From Acidobacteriota bacterium (GTDB lineage Bacteria; Acidobacteriota; Blastocatellia; UBA7656), in contig JACQDB010000106.1 of NCBI GenBank assembly GCA_016201275.1, positions 11,752-75,751 of the forward strand: a DNA stretch of 64,000 nt, written 5' to 3'. Made by a program: the position numbers and the translations under genes. This document shows positions 698 to 23,777 of the stretch, piece by piece. Below the pieces are notes generated by a model, which searched no databases, had not been told where the DNA came from, and saw only the letters and a list, made by a program, of their open reading frames with translations. The first letter of the stretch is position 1; the number at the start of each line of letters is the position of its first letter.

Positions 698-2023
698 ATG
701 CGGGTTAGCAAATTGATTACGGCTCTGATGCTTTTCATACTGGCGGGTTCTATGCTTGCGCCTTGGGCGCTTTCGGCAGATAAACCGGCAAAAGAGAAAG
801 CTGCAAATGCGGTTGCTCCGATTGAATTATCAAAGCTTGATGCCCTCGCCAAAAAACGCCTGACGGCAACCGCACGGGTCGCGTTGGTGGCGGAAACTTC
901 CGAACTGTTCACAGGCATTGAAAATTTAGAACCGCCGGAAACGCATCGCGTGCCGAATTATCTGCGCGCCATTGCTGCTTTACCGAACGCAACGAAACCG
1001 CTTGCCCATTTGCTCAAAACCGTAATTTATGGCGGCACGCTTGCGCCGGAAACCAAGTTGAGCATGGGATTAAGAATTTCGCAACTCACTGCCAGCCCGT
1101 ATGTGGCCGCGCACTTGCAACGACTGCTTGGTGGCAGCGCACGCGGACAGCAGATGCTCACCGGCATCAAGGCGAACGAGGCGGAAGCGATGAGCGCGGC
1201 TGACCGTCTGGCGTTGCGTTACGCCGAAGCCTTGACCCAAGAAGTTCACGGGGTCAGCGATGAAGATTTCCAAAAGACCCGCGCTTATTTCAACGACTCG
1301 CAGATTGTCGAATTGACCATGACGGTTTGCTTCTTCAATTACTTCACGCGCTTTTGCGAAGCCTTGAACTTGCCTGTTGAAGAGTGGGCGCTCAACACAG
1401 CGGCGGCAACATCGCTGGCGCAAAACTACGCGCCGCCGGTTGCCCGTGTGGCGCTGATTTCCGATGCCCAGATGCAGGCGGCAAGCGACGTATTGGCGGC
1501 CTCGAAGAACACCCAAGCAGCGGCATCGGGTCTGGGCTTGGGCATCGCCAATTCGCAAAGGGCGATGCTCAGAGTGCCGGATATTTCGGCAGCCTGGCGC
1601 GCTTTCGGCACGGCGGCGCGGGACTACGCCGAGGTGAGCCGCGAAATTAAATTGCACGTTTCGTTTGCGGTTTCGATGGCCAATGGCTGTCGTTACTGCA
1701 CCCTGCATCAGGTGTTGGGACTGCGACGCTTAAAGGTTGATCCGGCGAAGTTGATGGCGATGAAGAAAGACGACGCCGCCTTGTCTGCGCGAGAACTTGC
1801 GGCGGTCACTTTTGCGCGCCAATTGACACGCGCACCGGCGACGATTTCCGATGGCGATTATGAAAAGTTGAAGGCCGAGTTTAAGGAACAAGGAGCGCTC
1901 GAAGTGTTATTGCAAACCTGCAATTTCGCCTTTATGAATCGCTTTACCGACGGCTTGCGTCTGCCTTCCGAAGACGAAGCCATACGAGTCTATAAAGAGG
2001 TTTACGGCGCGGAGTGGAAATAA
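698..2023 (+). CDS. carboxymuconolactone decarboxylase/AhpD-like family protein (two CMD-like halves, exported)
   Basis: 441-aa ORF with a CAGGAGA SD just upstream and a signal-peptide-like N-terminus. It has two AhpD/CMD-like halves, and the second carries GCRYCTLH (CxxC-type motif). Confidence 0.7.
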   Translation: MRVSKLITALMLFILAGSMLAPWALSADKPAKEKAANAVAPIELSKLDALAKKRLTATARVALVAETSELFTGIENLEPPETHRVPNYLRAIAALPNATKPLAHLLKTVIYGGTLAPETKLSMGLRISQLTASPYVAAHLQRLLGGSARGQQMLTGIKANEAEAMSAADRLALRYAEALTQEVHGVSDEDFQKTRAYFNDSQIVELTMTVCFFNYFTRFCEALNLPVEEWALNTAAATSLAQNYAPPVARVALISDAQMQAASDVLAASKNTQAAASGLGLGIANSQRAMLRVPDISAAWRAFGTAARDYAEVSREIKLHVSFAVSMANGCRYCTLHQVLGLRRLKVDPAKLMAMKKDDAALSARELAAVTFARQLTRAPATISDGDYEKLKAEFKEQGALEVLLQTCNFAFMNRFTDGLRLPSEDEAIRVYKEVYGAEWK

Positions 2024-2054
2024 AACCATCTGGCGAAACGACCGGAGACGCGAG

Positions 2055-2112
2055 GCGTTTTGCCGCCCTCTATAACCGTCAATTCCGACAGGCATAGAGG
2101 GCGGCGAAACGC
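2055..2112. terminator. hairpin between convergent genes (possible bidirectional terminator)
   Basis: gcgttttgccgccctctat (2055-2073) pairs with atagagggcggcgaaacgc (2094-2112), 18/19 complementary. It lies between the stop at 2023 (+) and the stop at 2149 (-). No clean T-run. Confidence 0.45.
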
Positions 2113-2148
2113 AGCGCTTTGATTTTGCCTTTTCAAGTGCGCCTTCCC

Positions 2149-2595
2149 TTACGACAATTTCGCTTTCACCAAGTCGCTGAGAGTTTTGCCGTCAATGGTC
2201 TTGCCTACGAGTTTGGCGCGTGCGGCTTTCATCACCGCGCCCATATCTTTTGCCGTCGTCGCTGCGGTTTCTTCGATAGCGGTGGCGACGGCCTCGGTCA
2301 ACTCTTCCAGGCTTGCGGCGGCAGGCAGGTATTCCTGAATGATGCGCGCTTCGTTCTCTTCTTTCAGCGCCATCTCTTCGCGTCCGCCATTGCGAAAGGC
2401 TTCAGCGGCATCGCGGCGTTGTTTCAGCAACGTGCCTAAAACTTTGGCGGCTTCGGCATCATCCACGCTGCCCGGCAATTCCGTTTCGCGCAATTTCAAA
2501 GCGGTCTTCACCATGCGAAGGGCGCTCAAACGCTCGGCCTCTCTGGCCTTCATCGCCGTCACAAGGTCCTGATTGATTTGTTCTACGATTGTCAT
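2149..2595 (-). CDS. GatB/YqeY domain-containing protein
   Basis: 148 aa. MTIVEQINQDLVTAMKAREAERLSALRMVKTALK is the typical YqeY N-terminus. GAGGAA SD before the ATG at 2595. Confidence 0.85.
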   Translation of the reverse strand: MTIVEQINQDLVTAMKAREAERLSALRMVKTALKLRETELPGSVDDAEAAKVLGTLLKQRRDAAEAFRNGGREEMALKEENEARIIQEYLPAAASLEELTEAVATAIEETAATTAKDMGAVMKAARAKLVGKTIDGKTLSDLVKAKLS

Positions 2596-2628
2596 AATTC
2601 CTCATATCTTGAACAGAAATTCGGCTGC

Positions 2629-4938
2629 TCACTTTTGCGCCGCGTCGCCGTTTTTGCCTTTGGCTTTGCCGTTTTCGCCTTCCTGTTCGAGTTTGTAAAA
2701 ATCTAGCATCACGTCGGACTGGCCGCGCAAATCGCGTTCGAGGCGATTCAACGCGACGCGCACCACATCGCGGTGATGAACGCGGCGGCGGCTCGGTATA
2801 TTGCTCACCTGTAGCCACAGTTTATGAATCAAGGCGACATCGTCTTCCTTGAGATTCGGCGCGTGCGCTCCCATATAGACCACCTGTTCAGCGCCCACCA
2901 GGTCAACCACCTTGAAGCAAACTTCGCGGCGCGGACGGCTGCCCAGCGCTTCCCACGACCGCCCCAAGGCACGCGCCTGTTCCTGCGGCGTCATCTTGTG
3001 GGAAAGCCCGGCGACAATCTCCGCCGAATCCAGTTGCAAGGCGGTCTGCGCCACGGCATCGAAAACACTGGTTGCTGGCACAATAACCAGATCAACCGGC
3101 TTGCCATGTTTTTCCGCCAACGCGACGACCCGGGTAAATAACTTTTGCTCGTAGCTGGTGAAGAGGTTTTCATCATAGACTTCGCGCTCCGCGCCATCCG
3201 GCCCGGCTACCAATCGCGTCGTCATCACTACGATGTCGCGCTCTTCGGTATTGGTCTTTTCCAAGGTCTTTTCCAGATGGCTCAGAGTATTGAAGTCGCG
3301 CACCGCGACCAACACATTGCCCGGTCTTACGCCAACAACTTTCTGGTTGATCTCTTCGCTGTGCTGCAATTGAAACTGATCCAAAGAGGCGATAGTGCGA
3401 TCTAACTTCTGTTTGTTTTTATATTCCGAAATCGTAAAGATGACAAAGAAAATCGCGGTGAAGGCAATTCCGGAAACGGTGGCCACCTGTTTGGTCAACA
3501 AATTAATAATCGCTATGGAAGCCAGAAACAGGGCAATCAAAATCAACCCGAAGGGGATTTCGGTTCGCCCTATACGAAGGTTGCCCGGCACTCGCCATTC
3601 GCGGCCTTCGGGATGTTTGAAGCGCAAGACCACAGAGGCCACGGCGTTAAAAGTAAAACTCCAGATGACGCCGAAGGCATAGGCTTCGCCAAGATAAAAG
3701 ATATTGCCGCGTGAAGCGATAATCGTCACGATTTGCAGAATCGCCACGAGGTTGATAAGGCGATAGGTCGTGCCATATTTTTGGTGTGGAGCGCGATACC
3801 AATCGGTCAACACGCCATCTTCCGAGATGCGATTCAAAACGCCGTTTGAGCCAATGATGGCGGTATTGACCGCGCCGGAAAGCATGATAAATCCGACCAG
3901 CACTACGAAAGCCTGAAACAACAACTTTAAGGATTGCGGCCCTACGAAATGTAGCGCTAACCCCGAAATCAAATTGCCGCCATACTCTTTCACCCGCACA
4001 TCATCGGGAATTAGGGCAACGGCAAAGAACGATACGAGCGAAGTGAAAACCAACGAATAAACAAAGATCACCCATCCGGCTTTCTGTAGATTTTTTAGTT
4101 TGGGATATTCCAATTCGCGGTTGACTTGTGCCAACGTCTCTTCGCCGCTTAAGGCGAGTATCGAATGGCCGAAGGCCATCATCACGCCAATCAAGCCGAC
4201 CACACCAGAAAGTTTGCCGACGAAACTGAAACGTCCGCCCTCTTCGGTAAACCAACCCGTGTGACGGAGCCAGCCCAGCGCCTTTTCATCAAAGTTCAAA
4301 TTTGCAGGCGTAGGCGCAGGCGGTAACTGCCCACCGTGTTGTGCCAGCGTCAACAGCGCCCACAAAATCATGATGACAATCATCACCGTCGCAATCTTCA
4401 TGATTCGCAGCGCGTCTTCCGATGATTCGTGTATGCCTTTGATGTTGCGCCACCAAAAATAAATCGTCACCAAAATGGCAAGACCGGCAGCCAGATGATT
4501 GATGGTATCGTCAGAGGGATTCCAAGTATAACCAAAGTACGTCATGGTGGAGGAAACCAGTCCAACGATGTATTGCCCCGCAGAGACGCCGGAAATCGGC
4601 CCCGTCAAAATGAAATCGAAGATCAGCGCCGAAACGCTGAGTTTGGCCATCGTGCCACCCATCGCTTCTTTGACGACGCGATAGACGCCGCCGCGTGTGA
4701 ACATCGAAGACGATTCGATGTACAAAGCGCGCACCGCATAGCTGAACAGCATGACGCCGAGAATAAACCACGGCGCGGCTTTGCCGACGAACTGTTCGGA
4801 GATGCCGCCGACATAAAAAGCCGACGAACCTAAATCGTTCAGCACGATGGCAGCGGCGCGCCAGAACGAAATGAACGACAACATTACCGAGGTCGCAACC
4901 ACGACGCGGACTCGGTTATTGGATTTCGGAGTTTCCAT
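2629..4938 (-). CDS. APC-family amino acid/cation permease with C-terminal USP-like cytoplasmic domain
   Basis: Long ORF 2629-5103. I place the start at the ATG at 4938 (METPKSNN...). It has about 12 hydrophobic segments followed by a ~250-aa soluble tail (VLVAVRDFNTLSHLEKTL...VDLVIVPATS) resembling a universal stress protein fold. Confidence 0.75.
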   Translation of the reverse strand: METPKSNNRVRVVVATSVMLSFISFWRAAAIVLNDLGSSAFYVGGISEQFVGKAAPWFILGVMLFSYAVRALYIESSSMFTRGGVYRVVKEAMGGTMAKLSVSALIFDFILTGPISGVSAGQYIVGLVSSTMTYFGYTWNPSDDTINHLAAGLAILVTIYFWWRNIKGIHESSEDALRIMKIATVMIVIMILWALLTLAQHGGQLPPAPTPANLNFDEKALGWLRHTGWFTEEGGRFSFVGKLSGVVGLIGVMMAFGHSILALSGEETLAQVNRELEYPKLKNLQKAGWVIFVYSLVFTSLVSFFAVALIPDDVRVKEYGGNLISGLALHFVGPQSLKLLFQAFVVLVGFIMLSGAVNTAIIGSNGVLNRISEDGVLTDWYRAPHQKYGTTYRLINLVAILQIVTIIASRGNIFYLGEAYAFGVIWSFTFNAVASVVLRFKHPEGREWRVPGNLRIGRTEIPFGLILIALFLASIAIINLLTKQVATVSGIAFTAIFFVIFTISEYKNKQKLDRTIASLDQFQLQHSEEINQKVVGVRPGNVLVAVRDFNTLSHLEKTLEKTNTEERDIVVMTTRLVAGPDGAEREVYDENLFTSYEQKLFTRVVALAEKHGKPVDLVIVPATSVFDAVAQTALQLDSAEIVAGLSHKMTPQEQARALGRSWEALGSRPRREVCFKVVDLVGAEQVVYMGAHAPNLKEDDVALIHKLWLQVSNIPSRRRVHHRDVVRVALNRLERDLRGQSDVMLDFYKLEQEGENGKAKGKNGDAAQK

Positions 4939-5150
4939 TATTGATTTCAGAACCTCTGTGCAAGCGGGACTGTGGCAACCAAACCAGTAGCTGCAAAAGT
5001 AAAGGGATAGCATACGCTCAGAGAGGTTCTTGTCAAGGCGTTCGGATTGATTGCGGCTTACGGCAGCAGGGCCGCCTGGAAGTGCCGTGATAGAGCCAAT
5101 CAAGTTCAGCCCACATACCCAAAACCGGCGGCAAAGAGTAAACTGCCATT

Positions 5151-6380
5151 ATGCAACTGACGCGCATTGAGGCTTACGGGTTTCGCAACCTCGAAGGCTT
5201 CGTGGAAACTTCTGCCGGCCTGAATATTTTTTACGGCGACAATGCACAGGGCAAAACCAACTGGCTGGAAGCGATATATGTTCTCGGCAGCAGCAAATCA
5301 TTCCGCACCAATCAGGTGCGCGATTGCCTCAACTTCAACACTCACGAAGCCAGGATTCGCGGCGAGGTGTTGCGCGGCACGCTGCGAAAGCAACTGCAAC
5401 TGTTCCTCAACGACACCACCAAACAACTCTTCATCAACGGCAAACGCGAAGCCGTGACGCGCTATCTGGGCAACCTTGATGTCTTCGTCTTTTCGCTCGA
5501 AGAGATGGATGTGATTCGCGGCGACCCCACCAGTCGTCGCCGCTTTCTGGATCGCGGCGTAGCTACTCTGATGCCGTCGTTCATCGGCACGCTGGCGAAA
5601 TACAATCACCTGCTCAAACAGAAGAATCGCCTGCTTGCAGAAGCCAGCCAGAGCAAGGCTCCGGAAACTTTTTATCCGCAGGTCGAAGTCTGGAACGATC
5701 AGTTGGTCGAAGCCGGAACGGTAATTCACAAAGCCCGTGTCCGCTACATCGAACGCTTGAATCAGACGCTTGATGAAAACGATCATGGGCGAGCGATCTT
5801 CGGCGCTGAACGCATCAACCTGCGCTACAAATCGCACCTCGAAGGCAAAGGCGATCTGGACCAGTACCGGCAACTTTTCCGCGAGCGTTTAGAGGTTCGT
5901 TTGGCTGCCGAAGTGGCTTCCGGTCACGCCCTTTTGGGGCCGCATCGTGACGATTTGGAGATTCTTGCAGACGGGCGCGAAGTAGCGCGTTTCGGCAGCG
6001 CCGGACAACAGCGAAGTGCCTTAATTTTGCTTGATTTAGCGCAGGTTTCCATCTACAATTTTACTTACGAAGAAAGCCCGGTTTTACTCATAGATGACAT
6101 TGATGCGGAGCTTGACCGAGGGCGCATCGAAGCCCTACTTGTCGTGCTTGAGGGCAACGCGCAAACCTTCATCAGCACCTCGCGCCGCAGCATCGCCAAT
6201 CGCTATCGCGACCGCGCCGCCGTTTATTGGGTAGAGCAAGGGCAGGCCGTGAATGAACCATCTAGCGTCTCTCGTTTGGCAAGTCAAGACCCGGAAAACT
6301 CTGCCGATGAATTGGCGCGAGCCGTGCGCGAAAGGGTGGACCAAGAGGAGTCGGAAGACCTGGGGATGCAGGCAGAATGA
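5151..6380 (+). CDS. recF: DNA replication/repair protein RecF
   Basis: MQLTRIEAYGFRNLEG...FYGDNAQGKTNWLEAIY (Walker A) and LLIDDIDAELD (Walker B). Located directly upstream of gyrB. Confidence 0.95.
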   Translation: MQLTRIEAYGFRNLEGFVETSAGLNIFYGDNAQGKTNWLEAIYVLGSSKSFRTNQVRDCLNFNTHEARIRGEVLRGTLRKQLQLFLNDTTKQLFINGKREAVTRYLGNLDVFVFSLEEMDVIRGDPTSRRRFLDRGVATLMPSFIGTLAKYNHLLKQKNRLLAEASQSKAPETFYPQVEVWNDQLVEAGTVIHKARVRYIERLNQTLDENDHGRAIFGAERINLRYKSHLEGKGDLDQYRQLFRERLEVRLAAEVASGHALLGPHRDDLEILADGREVARFGSAGQQRSALILLDLAQVSIYNFTYEESPVLLIDDIDAELDRGRIEALLVVLEGNAQTFISTSRRSIANRYRDRAAVYWVEQGQAVNEPSSVSRLASQDPENSADELARAVRERVDQEESEDLGMQAE

Positions 6381-6455
6381 AGTGCTTGAGTGCGAACTGG
6401 AAAGCCCCTCGCACGGCATCCGGCAGCGCGTATTTCATCTCATGATTTCGAGTAA

Positions 6456-8924
<2,469 letters not shown>

Positions 8925-8955
8925 CGCGCTCGCTAGTGAGTCAAGGTAGAGAGAT

Positions 8956-9026
8956 GTTAGGTAGCCCCGCTTTCAGGCGGAAGTTGTCGCCTTCAGAGGC
9001 TTCCGCCTGAAAGCAGGACTACCTAA
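8956..9026. repeat. 71-bp imperfect palindrome downstream of gyrB (REP-like or terminator hairpin)
   Basis: gttaggtagccccgctttcaggcggaag ... cttccgcctgaaagcaggactacctaac. The arms are ~28 nt with two mismatches or bulges. No T-run follows. Confidence 0.5.
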
Positions 9027-9142
9027 CCTTGCCTTTCTCGCCTCGTTGAATCACTACAACGCGCCAATCATTTGCGCTGCGAGTCTGCGATCTTTGACAG
9101 ACAGCAGGCGCGACGCGCAAGTTTCCAATTAAACCGAACTTT

Positions 9143-10903
9143 GTGTCAGTCACCTATCAAACGATTTCTCCGCCAAGCCTCTCGCCTACCCGTCGCGAGT
9201 TTTTTTCCGCCGGTCTTCTCTTATTAATTTTTTCTGTGATCCTGTTTCTGCCGGTCTTCGTCAACGGCTTTCCGAGCGGTCACGATGGTTATGTGCAGTA
9301 TCGTTGGGCGGCGCAATTCATCGAGGCAATGCAAGAGCCGGGGGTGTGGTATCCGCGCTGGCTGGGCAGCGGCAACAATTATTCGGGCAGCCCTGTGATG
9401 CTGTACTATCCGCCGCTGCCGTTTTTTCTGATGGCCTTTTTTCATCTCTTCACCGGCGACACGCTGCACGCTATGACAGTCGCTTGCCTGCTGGCGCTGC
9501 TGCTGTCAGGCGTAACGATGTATGTTTTTCTGCGCTCGTTTTTCACTTATCGAATCGCTATTTTTGCGGCGGCGTTTTATATGGCCGCGCCCTATCATCT
9601 GCATGATTTTTATCAGCGATCAGCGCTGGCGGAATTCTGGGCGTTCGCCTGGTTGCCGCTGATCCTGCACGCCATTTATCGCCTCAACCAACGCCCTCAC
9701 AGCGGCGCGATAGTTTATTTGGGATTCAGTTCTGCGGCGCTGTTTTTGACGCACATACCGATTGCGTTTGCCTTCGCTTTGGTGTTGCCGATTTACCTTT
9801 TGTGGTTGACCAGAGACTGGCGGCGCTTGCTACGAATCGGCGCGGGCTTTGGGTTGGGCGCAGGGTTGAGCGCCATCTTTTTATTGCCGGTGCTGTTGGA
9901 ACGCGACTATGTGAAAATCTCTCGCTTGCTCGGCATACGCTTTTCCAACTATTGGAGCTTTGAAGAAGTGTTCCGCAGTCCGCTATGGCAACTCTCCCCG
10001 GAGAAAGAGTTTTACCTATTAAAGCTCATTGATCTGATGGCAGTGGGATTGGCGCTGCTGGTTTTCTTGAGCGCGGCAGTTTATTTTCTGCAACGCAAAA
10101 CTCTGAAAGCCGCGCCTACCTTGCACAAGGTGTTGCTTGCCTTGTGGTGCATTTCGGCGCTTTGTCTATTTTTGATGCTGCGGGTTTCGACCTTCATATG
10201 GGAAGTTTTCCCTCTGCTTGCTTATCTGCAATTTCCGTTTCGCTGGCTGACTATGGCATCGCTCGGCGCGGCGATGCTTGTAGCATTTATCACTCTCGCG
10301 CTGCGGCAACCAAGCCGCTGGCGCATTCCCTTCGGCATGGCTTTCGCGCTGCTGCTGTGCTTTATTGCGGCAATCAGTTTTCTGGTCATCAAACAAGCGC
10401 CGCACGAACGCGACCGCCTTATACGTCCCGGCATGACGCTGGAAGTCAAAGAGTATCATCCGGTGTGGTGGGACAAACGCAAGAACGAAGACGAGGTGGA
10501 CGAAGCGACGGTTTTGAAGATGCGTTTACCAGTGGTCGCGGTCACTGAGGGCGATGCCGATATTCAAGCTATAGATGACGAAGGCGTACAACAAACCTAT
10601 GCCATCAAGTCTCGACAGCATACGACGTTGAAGTTTCGCACGCTCTATTTTCCCGGCTGGAAAGCTTATGTGGATGATCAGGCGGTTGAAGTGCAACCAG
10701 GCAAAGAAGGCTACATCGAATTGATGGTGGAAAGTGGCGAACATCTGTTGCGCTTGAATCTTGAAGAGACGCGCCCACGCCGCTTCGGAAAAATCATTTC
10801 GCTCATTGCTCTCTTTGTTGCTCTCTGCTTAATTGCCATTGCCACACGTCAACGCCTACAATCTACCGACGCGAATGACACTCCTGATGACGAGGCGCAA
10901 TGA
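9143..10903 (+). CDS. polytopic membrane protein, PTPS-related/YfhO-like (putative GT-C-fold glycosyltransferase), paralog 1
   Basis: 586 aa with a GTG start. It has many TM segments, the N-terminal motif NGFPSGHDG...VWYPRWLG...SPVMLYYPPL, and the C-terminal soluble motif LYFPGWKAYVDDQAVEV. About 50% identical by eye to the next gene. Confidence 0.65.
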   Translation: MSVTYQTISPPSLSPTRREFFSAGLLLLIFSVILFLPVFVNGFPSGHDGYVQYRWAAQFIEAMQEPGVWYPRWLGSGNNYSGSPVMLYYPPLPFFLMAFFHLFTGDTLHAMTVACLLALLLSGVTMYVFLRSFFTYRIAIFAAAFYMAAPYHLHDFYQRSALAEFWAFAWLPLILHAIYRLNQRPHSGAIVYLGFSSAALFLTHIPIAFAFALVLPIYLLWLTRDWRRLLRIGAGFGLGAGLSAIFLLPVLLERDYVKISRLLGIRFSNYWSFEEVFRSPLWQLSPEKEFYLLKLIDLMAVGLALLVFLSAAVYFLQRKTLKAAPTLHKVLLALWCISALCLFLMLRVSTFIWEVFPLLAYLQFPFRWLTMASLGAAMLVAFITLALRQPSRWRIPFGMAFALLLCFIAAISFLVIKQAPHERDRLIRPGMTLEVKEYHPVWWDKRKNEDEVDEATVLKMRLPVVAVTEGDADIQAIDDEGVQQTYAIKSRQHTTLKFRTLYFPGWKAYVDDQAVEVQPGKEGYIELMVESGEHLLRLNLEETRPRRFGKIISLIALFVALCLIAIATRQRLQSTDANDTPDDEAQ

Positions 10904-17633: not shown

Positions 17634-17924
17634 AGCTGCTCCTGCAAATTGGTTTTCGATTTTTCGTGCCGCTATTTTAGCGTGAATCGCCAGCCACATA
17701 AAAATGAATTGCGGCGCGTGCGAAAAAAGTAAAGTTGGAGGATTGAGGATGGAATGAGTATTGCGGTCGTGTTGCAAAAATGAGGAGGGGCATCGAAAAG
17801 CTCCTGTTTTTATTGGGTATTTTCTTACCGCAGCCTCATTTTTGCAACAGCACCAATATTGCACCCCTGTTGTTTAGCTTCGTAGGAGCGCCCTGTCTAT
17901 AGATGTTGAGTGCAAGAATTTCTT

Positions 17925-18051
17925 TAGAGCGGTTTGTGTTTGAGATTACGGAAACCTCAAACCCTTTGAGCGGCGGTCGAAGACCGGCGTGCGGTCGAAG
18001 ACCGCTGCTCAACGATAGCGCCTTCCGTACACACCTATGCAAACCGCTCTA
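17925..18051 (+). mobile_element. MITE-like element, 127-bp family, copy A
   Basis: 11-bp terminal inverted repeats tagagcggttt / aaaccgctcta. Internal hairpins are gtttgag..ctcaaac and gagcggcggtcgaagacc...ggtcgaagaccgctgctc. Near-identical copies lie at 23424-23550 and 35021-35146. Confidence 0.75.
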
Positions 18052-18174
18052 AGGCTGCGAAATCAGTTTTTGGATGGAGCATAACGGTTTTCGCACTACC
18101 GAATTGCGAGTGGATAAGCCAACGGTCAAGCCAGGAGGAAAGCTTCCGGTAGTGCCGCTTTACGACAAACGATT

Positions 18175-19143
18175 TCAGGCGCGGCGGATCAGGTGTTTCA
18201 ATTCGCCGCGACCAAAGCGCGATTGCACTTCGATGACGATGGCGGCGGTGCCGGAAGAAAAAGCGGGCAGGGTTAAATTGAAGGTGGCGACGCCATCGGC
18301 GGCAGCGCGGCCTATGAAGACTTGGGGTTTGAATGCGGTGCCAATGATCTTCACGGTGACAATGGCATCGGGTTCCACTTTGTCGCCCTGCTGCACTTCG
18401 ATTCGCAGGGTGATGGTTTTGCCAGCGATAAAGACGCTGGGAGCAATCACCTTGACATCAAGTTTTTCCTGTTCCGAACTGCGTTTGAGATAATCGGAAA
18501 TGACTTCATCCAGATTCAGGCTGCCGGTTTTCAGCAATCCCGAATTGCCTTTCGCGGGGCGGGGCGGCGCGACCGTCTGCACCGCCGGTTTTTCCATGCC
18601 GGGGGCGCGGTTTAACAAACTGCCTGTGCGTTTAGGTTCGGATAAAAATCCCGATTTGCCTTTGGTTGCAGGCGGCGACAAAAAGCCGGACTTGCGCTTT
18701 GGTGGCGGCTCCGGTTTCATCTCCTGCATCGGCAGCGCCGGTTGCGGTTCCGTTTGCTGCATCGGCAGCGCCGGTTTCAGTTCCGCTTGCCGCATAGCTT
18801 GAGCGTCGTGGACGGCCACGCTCAAGGCTTCCTGAGCGCGTGCGACTTGCGCCGGTCGCTCTTCGCTGTAACGCGCCGAGTGTTTCACCAGGTCTTCGAT
18901 TCTTCCGGCTTTGATGGCGGCGATGATGACTTGATGCTGTTTCTTGAGCAGCGTGGCAATGGCGGCTTCATTAGCGCCTTGACTGAGTTTGTCAGCATAA
19001 GGCGTCAATTTTTTGGCGATGATGGTGCCGCCTATGTACACCAGTGATTCCAGCACCGGATTATCCTTGGTGCCGCGATCTTCGGTTTGCACATGATAGA
19101 CGCGGTCTTGATGTGGAACGTCGGTGTTGAAGCCTGTAATCAT
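18175..19143 (-). CDS. hypothetical protein with Pro-rich repeat linker and C-terminal Ig-like beta domain
   Basis: ATG at 19143 (MITGFNTDVPHQDRVYHVQTEDRG...). The middle region has repeats (PALPMQ x2, K-KSGFLS x2). The C-terminal ~100 aa show an alternating beta-strand pattern. Confidence 0.55.
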   Translation of the reverse strand: MITGFNTDVPHQDRVYHVQTEDRGTKDNPVLESLVYIGGTIIAKKLTPYADKLSQGANEAAIATLLKKQHQVIIAAIKAGRIEDLVKHSARYSEERPAQVARAQEALSVAVHDAQAMRQAELKPALPMQQTEPQPALPMQEMKPEPPPKRKSGFLSPPATKGKSGFLSEPKRTGSLLNRAPGMEKPAVQTVAPPRPAKGNSGLLKTGSLNLDEVISDYLKRSSEQEKLDVKVIAPSVFIAGKTITLRIEVQQGDKVEPDAIVTVKIIGTAFKPQVFIGRAAADGVATFNLTLPAFSSGTAAIVIEVQSRFGRGELKHLIRRA

Positions 19144-19320
19144 TTTTCTTGAAAGTACCACGCGCGATTTTCACCGTCAATCCTTCTAACTTTTGACCGG
19201 CACGATGACGCGCAAAGATGTTCCTGAGACTAATACATCGAAGGGGCTGAATACTTTTATGAGGTAATCTAAACTTACTCCTGAACCTGCCTATTGTTCA
19301 AGACTCTTTTGCAAAATATC

Positions 19321-19342
19321 TTTTCCGGTGCTGCCAAAGCCG
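19321..19342. repeat. left 22-bp direct repeat (att-like) of the dut-associated cassette
   Basis: ttttccggtgctgccaaagccg is 21/22 identical to 21276-21297. Confidence 0.75.
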
Positions 19343-19357
19343 CAAAATTTATGATTT

Positions 19358-19969
19358 CTATGGACGCATTTGCTGCAAAGCATCTCTAAAAACCTGAAAA
19401 CTTTTTGAACGATTACGAGTAACATCCATGTATTCTGCAATTTTTTGCGCTGCTTCAATCTTGGGCAACCCAGTTGTATAGTACCCTTTTCTTTGAAGAA
19501 CTCTTTCCAGCGCTTCCCAAGTTCCTCCTTGTATAGCATCAGGGTCTCTATAGCTTTTACGGCCTCCGAGATGCTTGGAAACTTTTGGATAGGCTGACAC
19601 GATGGCTTCCACATCACCGAAAAACCAAGCCTCTAATTCTTCAATGGCTATTCTGTTTAAGACTTGAAATGCTTCTTCTGTTCCGACTTTTGATGGGGTA
19701 AGAAATCCTGCGTCTTCAGCATTTTTTTCTAATTGTATCTTTAGCTCCGAACAATCTTGTTGATCTCTATCTACCAAAACAACGATGCGCCAGTCAGGAG
19801 GAATCCAGGCTTTATAACCTTTTAAGCGTGAAGGAAGGTTCTTCAAAAGATCACTTTTACCTTGAAAAACATGAATCGCAAATGTGATATCTGCTCCTAA
19901 AATTTTAGGAATAAGAACGAGCAGAGCTTTCTCTGCGGAGGGTTCCTCAACCAAAAATTCAATATGCAT
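19358..19969 (-). CDS. DUF4276-like protein (TOPRIM-like: early Glu + DxD)
   Basis: 203 aa. MHIEFLVEEPSAEKALLVLIPKIL..., RIVVLVDRDQQDC, IAIEELEAWFFGD. Size and N-terminal pattern match my recollection of DUF4276. It starts 7 nt after the ATPase stop. Confidence 0.65.
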   Translation of the reverse strand: MHIEFLVEEPSAEKALLVLIPKILGADITFAIHVFQGKSDLLKNLPSRLKGYKAWIPPDWRIVVLVDRDQQDCSELKIQLEKNAEDAGFLTPSKVGTEEAFQVLNRIAIEELEAWFFGDVEAIVSAYPKVSKHLGGRKSYRDPDAIQGGTWEALERVLQRKGYYTTGLPKIEAAQKIAEYMDVTRNRSKSFQVFRDALQQMRP

Positions 19970-19976
19970 GAAACCT

Positions 19977-21230
19977 CTATGCCTCCAATTGTTTGGTTAT
20001 AGAGGTTGAAAGTTGTTTCGGAGTCCCGGAATTGGTCAACGGGTCACCGACAGGAAAAAGCCCTTCCATCCAAAGTTGACCGAGTTGTGCCCCGGCATCC
20101 ACGAATTCGTTAATGCCTCGCATATCGGCAGCACACTGAGCTTTTGTATAACCCGTATCATCACGATAAAGCACCCATAACTCTTTCGGTTTTAACCCGC
20201 TTACAAAAAAGGGCGAGTGAGTAGTAACCATAAGTTGTGTTCGACTGGAAGCTTTTCTACATTCTTCCACCAATTCCGGTAAGAGACGTGGATGCAGGTG
20301 ATTTTCTGGTTCTTCTATGCCGACCAATTGAGGGGGTGCTGGGTCATAAAGCACGGTCAAATAAGCAAGCATCTTGAGGGTGCCATCAGAAGCATATTTA
20401 GCTAGTACGGGTCGTTGGAATGGCGCATCTTTGATCTGTAGTAGAAGCCTTCCATCCGCCATAGGTTCAGCCTCTACCTTTTCCAATTTGGGAACACGCC
20501 GCGAAAGCGTTTTAAGAATTTGGTCTAATCTTTCTGGGTGTTGTTCTTTCAAGTATTGAATAACATTTGGCAAGTTATCCCCTACTGCTGATAGACGTTC
20601 TTGAGGACCTGCTTCTGGGGTAACTCTGGTGTTATCGGCTGAGAGGTATGAAAGGTACCATTCCGTTATAAAACGTCGCAAGGCGCTAACTCGCGGATGT
20701 TTTGTAAATTGCCCCAACGTGTTGACCGCTAACATCTCACGCGAAGCAAGTGTTTCTGATATGCGTTCATCCAAATCGTCAGGAGATTCCCCCGTAATCA
20801 CTTGTCCAGTTCCATTGCTAAAGTCAAGAAATTTGAATGGCTGTCCTACTTGTTTATTCCTTCTCCACTTCAACCATTCTTGAGCAACATAAGGACCTTG
20901 CTGATCTTCTTCAATAGCAAGTTTATAAGTGATGAGGGGAGAGTTTGGTTCTTCTCGGTATTTCAATTCAAAGGTAATCGCTCCTTCAGCGCCTCTCGTG
21001 CGAAGTTCTTTAAATCTTCCACGCTTATCCCAAGCCTTGCGAAGCCCAATAGAAAAACATTCCGATAGAAAAGCAAAGACATCGAACACGGTAGATTTGC
21101 CACTCCCATTGGGACCAAGAAACACGGTTAGAGGAGTAAGGGATTTTAATTCTAAATCATGTAAGGCTCGATAATTTTGAATATGTAAATACTCAATCCT
21201 CGGAACCTTATTTTTTGGTTGCTGAGTCAT
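19977..21230 (-). CDS. ABC/SMC-type ATPase (AAA_21/AAA_15-like, OLD/AriA-like N-terminal ATPase architecture)
   Basis: The ATG at 21230 is preceded by GGAGGG. Walker A is [14 protein letters not shown]. The distal [13 protein letters not shown] (Walker B/D-loop) and MVTTHSP (H-loop) lie ~300 aa downstream. Confidence 0.85.
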
Positions 21231-21266
21231 TCTTTCCCTCCGCAAGAAATTGCTTGCGAGATTATT

Positions 21267-21710
21267 CTACTCCGATTTTCCGGTGCTGCCGAAGCCGTCC
21301 GCGCCGCGTTCCGTTTCATCCAATTGCGCGACCGCAAGCAATTTCACTTCTTCCACTTTTTGAATCATCATCTGAGCGATGCGGTCGCCGCGTTTGATAA
21401 CAAAACTCTCGCGCTTATCGGTATTGATGAGAATAACGGCGACTTCGCCGCGATAGCCGGAATCAATCAACCCCGGCGCATTGACTAAAGCGATGCCGTG
21501 CCGCGCCGCCAAGCCACTGCGCGGCAAAACCAATCCGGCGTAGCCCTGCGGTATGGCCAGCGCCAATCCGGTCGGAATGACGGCGCGTTCACCGGGCGCA
21601 AGTTCCACATCTATGCGGCTATGCAGATCGAATCCGGCATCGCCGGTGCGTTGATAACGCGGCAACGGCAATGCCTCATCGAGAAGTTGAATGGCGATTT
21701 CGAGCATCAC
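21267..21710 (-). CDS. dut: dUTP diphosphatase
   Basis: 147 aa. Contains AGFDL, LPRSGLAARHGI, GLIDSGYRGEV and the C-terminal RGADGFGSTGKSE. Confidence 0.95.
   Translation of the reverse strand: MMLEIAIQLLDEALPLPRYQRTGDAGFDLHSRIDVELAPGERAVIPTGLALAIPQGYAGLVLPRSGLAARHGIALVNAPGLIDSGYRGEVAVILINTDKRESFVIKRGDRIAQMMIQKVEEVKLLAVAQLDETERGADGFGSTGKSE
21276..21297. repeat. right 22-bp direct repeat (inside the last codons of dut)
   Basis: ttttccggtgctgccgaagccg encodes ...GFGSTGK on the minus strand. Confidence 0.75.
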
Positions 21711-23423: not shown

Positions 23424-23550
23424 TAGAGCGGTTTTCATAGGTGTGTACTGAACGCGCTATCGTTGAGCAGCGGTCTGTGACCGAGCGAAGGTCTTCGACC
23501 GCCGCTCAACCGGTTTGAGGTTTCCGTAATCTCAAACACAAACCGCTCTA
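23424..23550 (-). mobile_element. MITE-like element, 127-bp family, copy B (inverted relative to A and C)
   Basis: The reverse complement aligns to copy A over the full length. The differences are mainly in the loop of the central hairpin. Confidence 0.75.
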
Positions 23551-23777
23551 GCGCGTACTTGGCGGCTTGACGCGAGAGAATATTTTGGCAATCCGAGCGG
23601 TTCGCGCAAAGTTGCAAAGCCGCCAAGATACGCCAAGTTTATTGGTCGCACATCAAAGAATCTTTCATGCGAAATCGCTTCGGAAAGCGGTTGAGAATCT
23701 TGCGAGTAAGCCAAATTAAAAACGGATGGTGAATTGAAAAAAACAATCCGCCATCCGCATTCTGCATTCCGCAATCG

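Follow-up and report, generated by a model that had tools for sequence, protein, structure and literature searches.

A two-gene HEC-01-type cassette between 22-bp direct repeats in the last codons of an acidobacterial dut gene

Introduction

It is poorly understood how very small defence modules spread from genome to genome and end up within or next to other genes, the usual explanations being large islands, phages and exchange through flanking homology. The elements e14 and phage 21, which integrate into icd of Escherichia coli, carry integrase genes of their own, and the similar sequence that they duplicate is ~165 bp long. Recombinase-less modules moved by host enzymes include the pdif modules of Acinetobacter plasmids and elements that make use of XerCD at dif. 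Streptococcus thermophilus has CIMEs at the 3' terminus of its fda gene. CIMEs, the cis-mobilizable elements (as defined in PMC5704250), are decayed ICEs or IMEs with att sites for a known cognate integrase.

Among candidate defence modules, the wider OLD, PARIS and AbiL group consists of ABC-ATPase plus Toprim systems (PMC11464382, PMC12065111). HEC-01 (Hma-embedded candidate 01) takes its definition from a location within Hma or restriction-modification operons and gave no protection in an E. coli assay (10.1101/2024.01.29.577857; Payne et al., bioRxiv). Because of that assay, a defence role for the HEC-01-type cassette described here is only presumed.

Here we analyze this cassette in a 64-kb stretch of DNA (the window) from a soil/groundwater acidobacterium, the source metagenomes of which came from groundwater. 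A first-pass annotation, made from the sequence alone, had proposed that an element inserted into the 3' end of the dUTPase gene dut and brought a replacement 3' end with it. Coordinates are window positions, and all features described below lie on the minus strand.

Results

The window contains two direct repeats of 22 bp, TTTTCCGGTGCTGCCAAAGCCG (19321-19342) and TTTTCCGGTGCTGCCGAAGCCG (21276-21297), identical at 21 of 22 positions. No other match to the 22-mer was found in the window with up to three mismatches allowed, and the chance expectation for the repeat was 0.00 based on 100 dinucleotide-preserving shuffles. The repeats reported in the first-pass annotation are thus real and far beyond chance, and all of its coordinates and readings were reproduced on recomputation. 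The dut-proximal copy (21276-21297) encodes GFGSTGK, motif V of dUTPase, and supplies the last codons of dut (146 aa, 21267-21707), which ends GFGSTGK-SE* with its stop at 21267-21269, as originally described. This gene matches the trimeric dUTPase fold family over its full length (Pfam dUTPase, E = 2e-35; residues 15-144 on positions 4-129 of the 129-position model), and its motif V (GFGSTG) is intact; dUTPase homologues stop at various points, 0 to ~10 residues past this motif. The orphan copy (19321-19342) reads ...CGFGSTGKDILQKSLEQ* with a stop at 19291-19293, so that the claim of a second dUTPase C-terminal motif with no dut body upstream also held. Its tail, DILQKSLEQ* (19291-19320), is still an intact reading frame. 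We rejected the possibility that this repeat belongs to some other conserved gene: the open reading frame that covers it, of 108 aa, has no family match and overlaps the DUF4276 gene of the cassette in another frame.

Comparison with relatives revealed the empty site. The closest dut relatives (78-83% identical) have tails such as ...GFGSTGKESLQKSLE and no cassette, and their gene order is that of the window minus the cassette: dut, a gene of 311-354 aa, ThiS and ThiG. Four independent empty-site loci were found (L165/L166, L163/L164, L172 and the P0140 contig). Relatives lacking the cassette have one copy of the 22-mer each, which aligns to both window copies, and their dut tails, of the KESLQKSLE, KEIL or KAPLQKES type, are homologous to the orphan KDILQKSLEQ. 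The orphaned tail in particular is homologous to the P0140 and P0141 tails (KESLQKSLE) and to the DNA of L163, L164 and L165, which is also colinear with the intergenic region beyond it (19162-19290). Further downstream lies a conserved gene (18175-19161; 322-328 aa, no Pfam family) that is 73% identical to the 354-aa protein after dut in L165 and is followed, as in relatives, by ThiS, ThiG and DUF5009 genes. When the window flanks were joined, they gave a single unbroken blastn match to four empty-site loci (855 nt, 76-77% identity); the occupied form gave two matches, both of which include the one 22-mer of the subject and which overlap there by 23 nt.

On the dut side, homology to empty-site relatives ends right after GGAAAA and gives way to the replacement tail TCG GAG TAG (S, E, stop; 21267-21275). 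Based on the empty sites and the joined-flank match, KDILQKSLEQ* is therefore the native end of dut and SE* was supplied by the cassette. Alignment with related dut loci had been put forward in the first-pass annotation as a test that could refute insertion; the relatives' dut 3' end proved colinear with the DNA after the orphan copy, and the proposal of an element that replaced the 3' end of dut survived. The cassette was almost certainly inserted into the last codons of a resident dut. The whole insert (1,933 bp, 19343-21275) is absent from L165, L166, L163, L164 and L172, and the insertion amounts to a duplication, in a single event, of the 22-bp GFGSTGK block, with the native tail and intergenic DNA displaced 1.95 kb downstream.

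The two repeat copies differ only at position 7, where the dut-proximal copy has the relatives' C (TTC) and the orphan has T. Both share GGC where most relatives have GGT (L165, L163, L169, L171 and L002). P0122 shares 83% identity with the window dut, and the dut of L095 shares 77%. Sliding identity placed the body of the window dut closer to the L165/L163 group along the whole length up to the repeat and gave no sign that its 3' part is mosaic or comes from a donor. Exact record searches returned only source metagenome contigs for the 146-aa form of dut and nothing for a 147-aa form with a GTG start. A dut scan of genome contigs found no close relative (best matches 72% and 67% identical, not syntenic), and none of 80 genome loci, mostly Actinomycetota, had a second GFGSTG orphan beside dut.

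Profile scans identified only two genes inside the insert. HEC-01A (417 aa, 19977-21230) is an ABC-type (AAA_21/AAA_15) ATPase that matches its model over the full length (PADLOC PDLC04182, E = 2.9e-170, residues 15-401 on 406 positions; Pfam AAA_21, E = 8.7e-32). HEC-01B (203 aa, 19358-19969), a DUF4276 (Toprim-like) protein, adjoins it in the same orientation after a gap of 7 nt and is likewise full length (PADLOC PDLC04202, E = 2.1e-94, residues 1-201 on 204 positions; Pfam DUF4276, E = 1.2e-34). With both genes assigned to HEC-01 end to end, the earlier observation that no integrase, transposase or terminal inverted repeat lies between the repeats was borne out. As judged from these profiles, the cassette is a predicted OLD/PARIS-like pair of HEC-01 type, comprising an ABC ATPase and a DUF4276/Toprim nuclease-like protein, with the same two-gene architecture and families as HEC-01. 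The context differs: HEC-01 was discovered within Hma/restriction-modification operons, whereas the window copy stands alone behind a housekeeping gene, outside Hma or any other multi-gene defence operon, with dut, the conserved 328-aa gene, ThiS/ThiG and SecA as neighbors. Type I restriction-modification loci surround the HEC-01 homologues of L106, L091 and a Meiothermus plasmid. Homologues of the ATPase number in the thousands, at 73-80% identity, across phyla. Only ten matches to the cassette were on plasmids, the best of them 65% identical and inside a type I restriction-modification operon; a search for other vehicles gave one weak phage match and none among viral contigs.

The insert has the lowest GC content of any 1,933-bp segment of the window (42.8% versus a median of 53.2%), and GC3 is 30-36% in the cassette genes compared to 61-64% in neighboring genes. 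Its composition is un-ameliorated, and the GC3 values point to a low-GC donor. Taken as a sequence-based assignment, this is a horizontally acquired cassette of candidate anti-phage type. The insert is tightly trimmed, with 45 nt ahead of the ATG and 15 nt beyond the stop. The ATPase ATG lies 36 nt past the dut stop in the same orientation, which agrees with the spacing first given, and the 36-nt leader (21231-21266) contains a GGAGGG ribosome-binding site and the 6-bp hairpin noted earlier (21241-21258). This hairpin exists but is weak: it folds no better than shuffles (z = -0.64) and is not followed by a U-run on the minus (coding) strand, so that it hardly convinces as a terminator of dut transcripts. 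Given the 36-nt gap and the lack of a terminator, transcription from the dut promoter probably continues into the cassette. A promoter-like match created at the junction (TCGGCA-17-TAGAAT, 21292-21264) is present, but such matches are no commoner than in shuffles, and we rejected it. A terminator hairpin at the cassette ends was also rejected, on the same fold score and missing U-run.

Other standard explanations for the insert failed as well. An IS, transposon or MITE was rejected because the insert has neither terminal inverted repeats nor a transposase gene; no inverted repeat was found that pairs the two insert ends, and 22 bp falls outside the usual target duplication of 2-15 bp. An integron gene cassette was rejected because there is no attC: only 15 nt (19343-19357) separate the DUF4276 stop from the orphan repeat, too few for one, and the sole hairpin is the weak one in the 5' leader. 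The 22-mer, which sits within a coding motif, contains no dif-like dyad (two 11-bp arms around a 6-bp center).

We surveyed flanking direct repeats at 55 HEC-01 loci with sufficient flank, namely the window and 54 loci from metagenomes; the cross-pair null reached at most 13. Repeats above the null were present at seven of these (the window, L152, L106, L093, L091, L157 and L162); in each case the repeat is the end of a neighboring gene, and none of the pairs encloses a recombinase. Flanking repeats at the other HEC-01 loci range from 9 to 155 bp and are unrelated in sequence, and the lack of a consensus makes a single dedicated att-specific integrase unlikely. In L157 and L162 they measure 61-155 bp at ~88% identity. 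Tight trimming around the operon recurs at other HEC-01 loci.

In another Blastocatellia lineage (L095, L169 and L170), a related cassette lies within the final two codons of dut. Its ATPase is the best match to that of the window (80% identical), and the insertion is independent of the window's. A sister relationship of the two ATPases was not supported by the tree, the cassette leaders share no homology, and GC content is 48-50% in the L169 and L095 cassettes versus 42.8% in that of the window. No repeat longer than 3 nt flanks the L169/L095 insertion, which instead has a 10-nt replacement. L173 lacks the cassette although its flanks are 94-98% identical to those of L169, while the more distant L095 has it. 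This second dut-terminal insertion hints that dut may be actively 'targeted'.

Discussion

The window element resembles CIMEs in being short, in having attL/attR-like direct repeats on either side and a position where a housekeeping gene ends (3'), and in lacking integration and transfer genes of its own; CIME cargo is often of defence type. Of its flanking repeats, one closes dut and the other leads into the native tail, and only HEC-01A and HEC-01B lie between them. Unlike CIMEs, it comprises just two genes, neither a dut-specific integrase nor an integrase-bearing sibling was found for it, and the repeats of related cassettes are unrelated in sequence. Like e14 and phage 21, it interrupts an essential metabolic gene within its 3' end, supplies a substitute end and leaves the old end orphaned beyond the element; it differs from them in a duplication of 22 bp, two unrelated tail codons and the lack of an integrase. 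It shares with dif/pdif modules a small cargo between short repeated sites, and those modules are moved in trans by a recombinase that they do not encode. The window repeats are direct, whereas pdif modules have inverted, XerC/XerD-oriented pairs.

Our leading explanation, which we hold at somewhat below an even chance, is that an acquired cassette entered dut by crossover within 22 bp of identity. The cassette would have arrived as a small DNA circle, or on some other molecule with a dut-like stretch of 22 bp, and undergone one reciprocal (Campbell-type) crossover 3' of repeat position 7. As the sequence shows, dut has kept motif V and gained a two-codon tail and stop from the cassette. The circle junction would read …AAATCATAAATTTTG-22-mer-TCGGAGTAG…, that is, AAATCATAAATTTTG, the 22-mer and then TCGGAGTAGAATAATC, and the empty-site junction would consist of the dut body, one 22-mer and then GATATTTTGCAAAAG. 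Because the cassette has no recombinase, we infer catalysis in trans, by a site-specific integrase encoded elsewhere (CIME-like) or by host recombination on short homology; this single-crossover, in-trans mechanism is the one we favor, although it is somewhat less likely than not. A crossover within the 22-mer is supported by the non-mosaic dut and by the C/T mismatch, which fits exchange 3' of position 7, and a defined recombinase-less unit by the full-length HEC-01 genes, the tight ends and the repeat-bracketed cassettes elsewhere. No integrase was found in the cassette or among ten otherwise unassigned window open reading frames; of the other window frames, those around the cassette were scanned against Pfam and the rest were inspected by eye from their first residues only. 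Four groundwater metagenome runs contained no empty-site, excised or circle joint, which is weak evidence because these were low-depth assembler contigs (3-9x). Homology alone was rejected as the reason for the site, the GFGSTG block not being the longest identity block between diverged dut genes. Against crossover within the 22-mer, a low-GC donor would also need to carry a 59%-GC, 21/22 dut mimic, which adds an assumption; the L169/L095 insertion has no repeat beyond 3 nt; and the GGC common to both copies fits duplication of native sequence equally well.

That last point leads to an unlikely but serious alternative, an illegitimate insertion that created a genuine target-site duplication. 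A linear fragment of low GC would have been captured at a break in dut whose nicks were spaced by 22 nt, or through replicative template switching; the native 22 bp would have been duplicated by fill-in, and one copy would later have mutated (C/T). The shared GGC would then be the window lineage's own sequence, and a low-GC donor would need to carry no dut mimic. The variable, consensus-free repeats elsewhere fit this account, and the 3-nt repeat with 10-nt replacement in the L169 lineage is typical of illegitimate joining. However, transposases and casposases are not known to make duplications as long as a 22-nt stagger would give. Moreover, the tight, recurring trimming around the operon looks like a defined unit rather than a random fragment, and the long ~88% repeats of L157 and L162 look like donor and recipient copies rather than fill-in.

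A further alternative, which we consider improbable, is homology-facilitated illegitimate recombination anchored in dut. Here the cassette would already have lain behind a donor dut; the left join would be a homologous crossover in the dut 3' end and the right join illegitimate, 22 bp upstream, which would create the duplication. In its favor, the related cassette lies in the last two dut codons of L095, L169 and L170, and the K-SE* tail resembles native tails of other acidobacterial dut genes: KRSE occurs in 8 of the 120 best dut matches, and RASEK/RTSEK also occur. Yet no donor-type segment is visible in the window dut upstream of the 22-mer, the dut-ATPase leader shows no homology to its L169 and L095 counterparts, and the window cassette is far lower in GC than theirs. 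A 22-bp anchor also seems too short, since anchors in experimental studies of this process were far longer.

There is a slim chance that HEC-01-type cassettes are semi-autonomous mobile units that insert at extreme gene ends with variable-length repeats and no canonical recombinase, either through their own ABC-ATPase/Toprim nuclease cutting the target followed by host repair, or through an undescribed trans-acting system with a preference for sites like the end of dut. If so, the repeat-bracketed cassettes at unrelated sites and the two independent dut-end insertions would be the signature of mobility.

The reading that nothing was inserted here, with the cassette ancestral at dut and lost from the sampled relatives by repeat recombination or with the repeat and orphan due to chance or an unrelated feature, is close to refuted: presence can flip by loss, as in L173, and 22-bp repeats could in principle mediate precise deletion, but the clade of the window has at least four empty relatives and a single occupied genome, the composition is un-ameliorated, the copies differ at 1 of 22 positions while the orphan tail is still an intact frame, shuffles exclude chance and the orphan is homologous to real dut tails.

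The locus is a clean natural case of an occupied and an empty site, with a two-gene cargo, junctions known to the base and no recombinase, in which a 22-bp duplication falls in a conserved motif of an essential gene. Read from its sequence, it shows a dUTPase that apparently tolerates a swap of the tail after motif V, and a defence-type operon can probably come under a housekeeping promoter in this way. Together with the second dut-end insertion and the other repeat-bracketed cassettes, it offers a testable system in which trans-acting integrases, short-homology recombination and end-joining can be set against one another.

Occupied and empty sites at the 3' end of dut

The two 22-bp direct repeats around the cassette (19321-19342 and 21276-21297) differ at one base and have no other match in the window at up to three mismatches, with 0 occurrences in 100 shuffles. 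A full-length dUTPase on the minus strand (21267-21707; Pfam E = 2e-35) has its GFGSTGK in the right copy and then finishes with SE and a stop codon. The left, orphan copy, which lacks a dut body ahead of it, continues in frame as DILQKSLEQ to a stop at 19291-19293. Both the repeats and the two dut ends are thus as the first-pass annotation had described them. A 108-aa ORF formally spans the left copy, overlapping the DUF4276 gene of the cassette in a different frame, and found no family match in a Pfam scan.

The annotation had also proposed that the cassette inserted into the 3' end of dut, which predicts relatives with an empty site. Close relatives were absent from the species-representative genome collection but present in the large protein collection, where the best dut homologues are 78-83% identical. 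Several of these end in GFGSTGKESLQKSLE, KAPLQKES, KEIL or KESL, and because the nearest homologues carry such tails, the orphan KDILQKSLEQ is the native dut tail type of the window's clade. On the relatives' contigs, dut is followed directly by a 311-354-aa protein, ThiS, ThiG and a DUF5009 protein, which is the window's gene order minus the cassette (identity between the 354-aa protein and its 328-aa counterpart in the window is 73%). Aligned as DNA, the relatives' sequence from the dut 3' end through the intergenic region runs colinear with the window's orphan 22-mer, tail and intergenic DNA; on the dut-proximal side, the window diverges from them right after GGAAAA.

When the window flanks were joined in silico, they gave one 855-nt blastn match at 76-77% identity to each of four relatives (L165, L166, L163 and L172); the occupied sequence gave two matches overlapping by 23 nt in the subject, and therefore the relatives' single 22-mer corresponds to both window copies. 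The relatives have tails like the orphan's and no cassette, their dut 3' ends and downstream regions are related to the window's, and the left repeat is not part of an unrelated conserved gene. As judged from these occupied and empty sequences, insertion of the cassette into the 3' end of dut is established. All four metagenome runs with the locus carry the occupied form (low-depth contigs).

In one empty-site relative, a 1-nt indel (L165:6432-6470) produces a frameshifted short dut tail ending KESL, and the DNA past its stop is still homologous to the ...QKSLE tail; for this reason, the tail after motif V may be decaying or dispensable in the window's clade.

A foreign two-gene insert

The insert (19343-21275; 1,933 bp) encodes only two co-oriented genes: an ABC-type ATPase, HEC-01A (19977-21230; Pfam AAA_21 and AAA_15; PADLOC full length, E = 2.9e-170), and a DUF4276 protein, HEC-01B (19358-19969; PADLOC full length, E = 2.1e-94). 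Pfam and PADLOC identified no recombinase inside it, in agreement with the original reading, and no inverted repeat pairs its two ends. An integron attC was rejected, as the 15 nt after the second gene leave no space for one. No recombinase domain was found in ten unassigned window ORFs; for the remaining window ORFs the survey was not exhaustive, with first residues read by eye and those around the cassette scanned against Pfam. At 42.8%, the GC content of the insert is the lowest of all 1,933-bp stretches in the window (median 53.2%), and its GC3 is 30-36% compared with 61-64% in dut, secA, thiG and the downstream gene. Based on this composition, the insert is foreign and little ameliorated.

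[quoted passage not shown] DUF4276 has been placed in the Toprim superfamily, with catalytic E and DxD residues (PMC12065111), and grouped with AAA15/21-ATPase defence systems related to PARIS and OLD (PMC11464382). By analogy, we infer that the pair would work as an ATP-driven sensor and a nuclease effector. The cargo belongs to a candidate defence type that is already known; its stand-alone location here is unusual.

Two inverted copies of a short repeat (17903-18052 and 23435-23626) flank a 5.4-kb segment with the 328-aa gene, cassette, dut and a 419-aa gene, and their spurious ORF translations are near-identical (...ERFVFEITETSN.LSGGRRP...). The cassette junctions lie elsewhere, and we saw no link to the insertion.

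After insertion, dut motif V is intact. Since homologues end 0 to about 10 residues past GFGSTG and L165 has its short frameshifted tail, the two codons that replace the native tail are probably neutral. Between dut and the ATPase gene, the 36-nt gap contains a ribosome-binding site and just a weak hairpin, which folds no better than shuffles and has no U-run after it on the minus, coding strand, and read-through from dut is plausible. A sigma-70-like match (TCGGCA, 17 nt, TAGAAT; 21264-21292, minus strand) crosses the junction, its -35 lying in the 22-mer and its -10 formed by the stop codon that the cassette brought; shuffles contain matches of this kind at least as often, and a junction promoter is not supported.

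Related cassettes in other loci

Thousands of ATPase homologues occur at 73-80% identity in unrelated phyla, and no relative of the cassette closer than 80% was found in the collections searched, including plasmid, phage and viral ones. The A-B gene pair is conserved in the 80 metagenome loci that we retrieved with flanks. Fifty-five loci (54 metagenome loci and the window) had enough flank to score direct repeats against 300 non-cognate flank pairings (maximum score 13). Seven exceeded this maximum: the window, L152 (19 bp, exact, in the last codons of a convergent gene), L157 and L162 (61-155 bp, at the 3' end of a Pyr_redox_2 gene), L093 (19 bp, one mismatch), and L106 (22 bp) and L091 (at least 30 bp), both inside type I restriction-modification loci. 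Below the threshold, L083, L085, L086 and L089 have a common 9-11-bp repeat at the start codon of a macro-domain gene, with an identical base change in both copies in L089. There was no consensus among the repeats of different loci, and none of these repeats encloses a recombinase. Near-identical cassettes have different upstream or downstream neighbours, the shared block beginning within ~25-120 nt of the ATG and stopping at or just past the second stop codon; the cassette boundaries are therefore tight.

Eight loci (L106, L109, L110, L114, L118, L122, L130 and L133) carry cassettes 95-99% identical at the DNA level in varied type I restriction-modification neighbourhoods. L110 and L114 have the cassette and downstream DNA in common, with upstream flanks diverging ~25 nt before the ATG, and some DNA downstream of the L106 cassette (about 4001-5865) is upstream in L110. 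In L162, a second copy of the 3' end of a phenylacetate-CoA-ligase-like gene lies ~3.5 kb downstream of the first (1727-3016 and 6582-6869). The unit between the copies contains a 203-aa ORF as well as the repeat-flanked cassette, an arrangement resembling nested or successive insertion events at the 3' ends of genes. Among plasmids, the best homologue (65% identical) is on a Meiothermus taiwanensis plasmid (L175; NZ_CP021131.1, 49794-61002), in an operon of methyltransferase, DUF262, HsdS, DUF4433 (DarT-like), macro domain, ATPase, DUF4276 and HsdR, where embedded defence genes are stacked within a type I restriction-modification system.

A second insertion at a dut end

In a second Blastocatellia lineage (L095, L169 and L170), a related HEC-01 cassette lies within the last two dut codons in the same orientation, facing a convergent dcd. 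Its ATPase is the best match to the window's (80% identical), and the tree does not settle the relationship between the two. In L173 and L174, which match L169 at 94-98% identity in the flanks, the dut stop is followed by CCG and the dcd stop with no cassette, so that L169 has 2,075 bp in place of 10 bp (L169:6441-8515 versus L173:5441-5450). No direct repeat longer than 3 nt marks the L169 junction. Because L095 carries the cassette (L095:3901-5962) and yet is further from L169 than L173 is, the L173 state is probably secondary loss or allelic replacement. L173 also differs in having an intein in dcd (5451-7172; an ordinary 196 aa in L169) and a HicA/HicB pair (3591-4020) absent from L169, and encodes an SNF2 helicase with an intein and LAGLIDADG domain (8162-10447).

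Beyond the dut-cassette pair, the window and the second lineage are not syntenic in either direction, and their junctions are ~15 nt apart in position, which indicates separate events. Chance would be unlikely to place two hits within ~20 nt of one gene end in a set of ~80 loci, and the recurrence suggests site preference or homology-aided spread.

Origin of the insertion

The occupied and empty sites show one event, in which 1,933 bp were inserted and 22 bp duplicated; the cassette itself encodes no recombinase. We tentatively favour a circular route, in which a small circular form with a 22-bp dut-like segment would integrate by single crossover, through a trans-acting site-specific integrase, as for cis-mobilizable elements (CIMEs, att-flanked islets without integration or transfer genes of their own; PMC5704250), or through host recombination. 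The window's dut is nearest to the L165/L163 group over its whole length, including the last 100 nt, and therefore no donor dut segment accompanied the cassette, placing the join in or at the 22-mer. The one base that differs between the copies is as in the relatives (TTC) in the dut-proximal copy and a T in the orphan copy, which fits a reciprocal exchange 3' of this position and also fits later mutation within duplicated native sequence. The GGC common to both copies (GGT in most relatives) mildly favours duplication of native sequence.

This shared GGC also favours a linear fragment caught at a staggered break and then filled in, as do the low-GC donor, the varying repeat lengths and the repeat-free L169 junction; we consider such capture the less likely route. 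Homology-facilitated illegitimate recombination with a donor already carrying the cassette behind dut is favoured by the second lineage and by the SE end that the cassette brought, similar to the KRSE and RASEK tails found in other acidobacterial dut genes, but is improbable given that dut is not mosaic, that the leader is unrelated and that the GC content differs. Homology alone is insufficient to explain the site, as diverged dut genes share longer identity blocks than the GFGSTG block. An ancestral cassette lost everywhere else is very improbable. Under the favoured circular route or any other, selection for an intact dut would filter insertions to the extreme gene end.

The insertion mode resembles that of CIMEs and of icd/e14-type gene-end integration, although only some defining features of either are present. 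Rather than a new kind of system, the locus offers a clean example resolved to the base and a lead on the movement of minimal defence cassettes.
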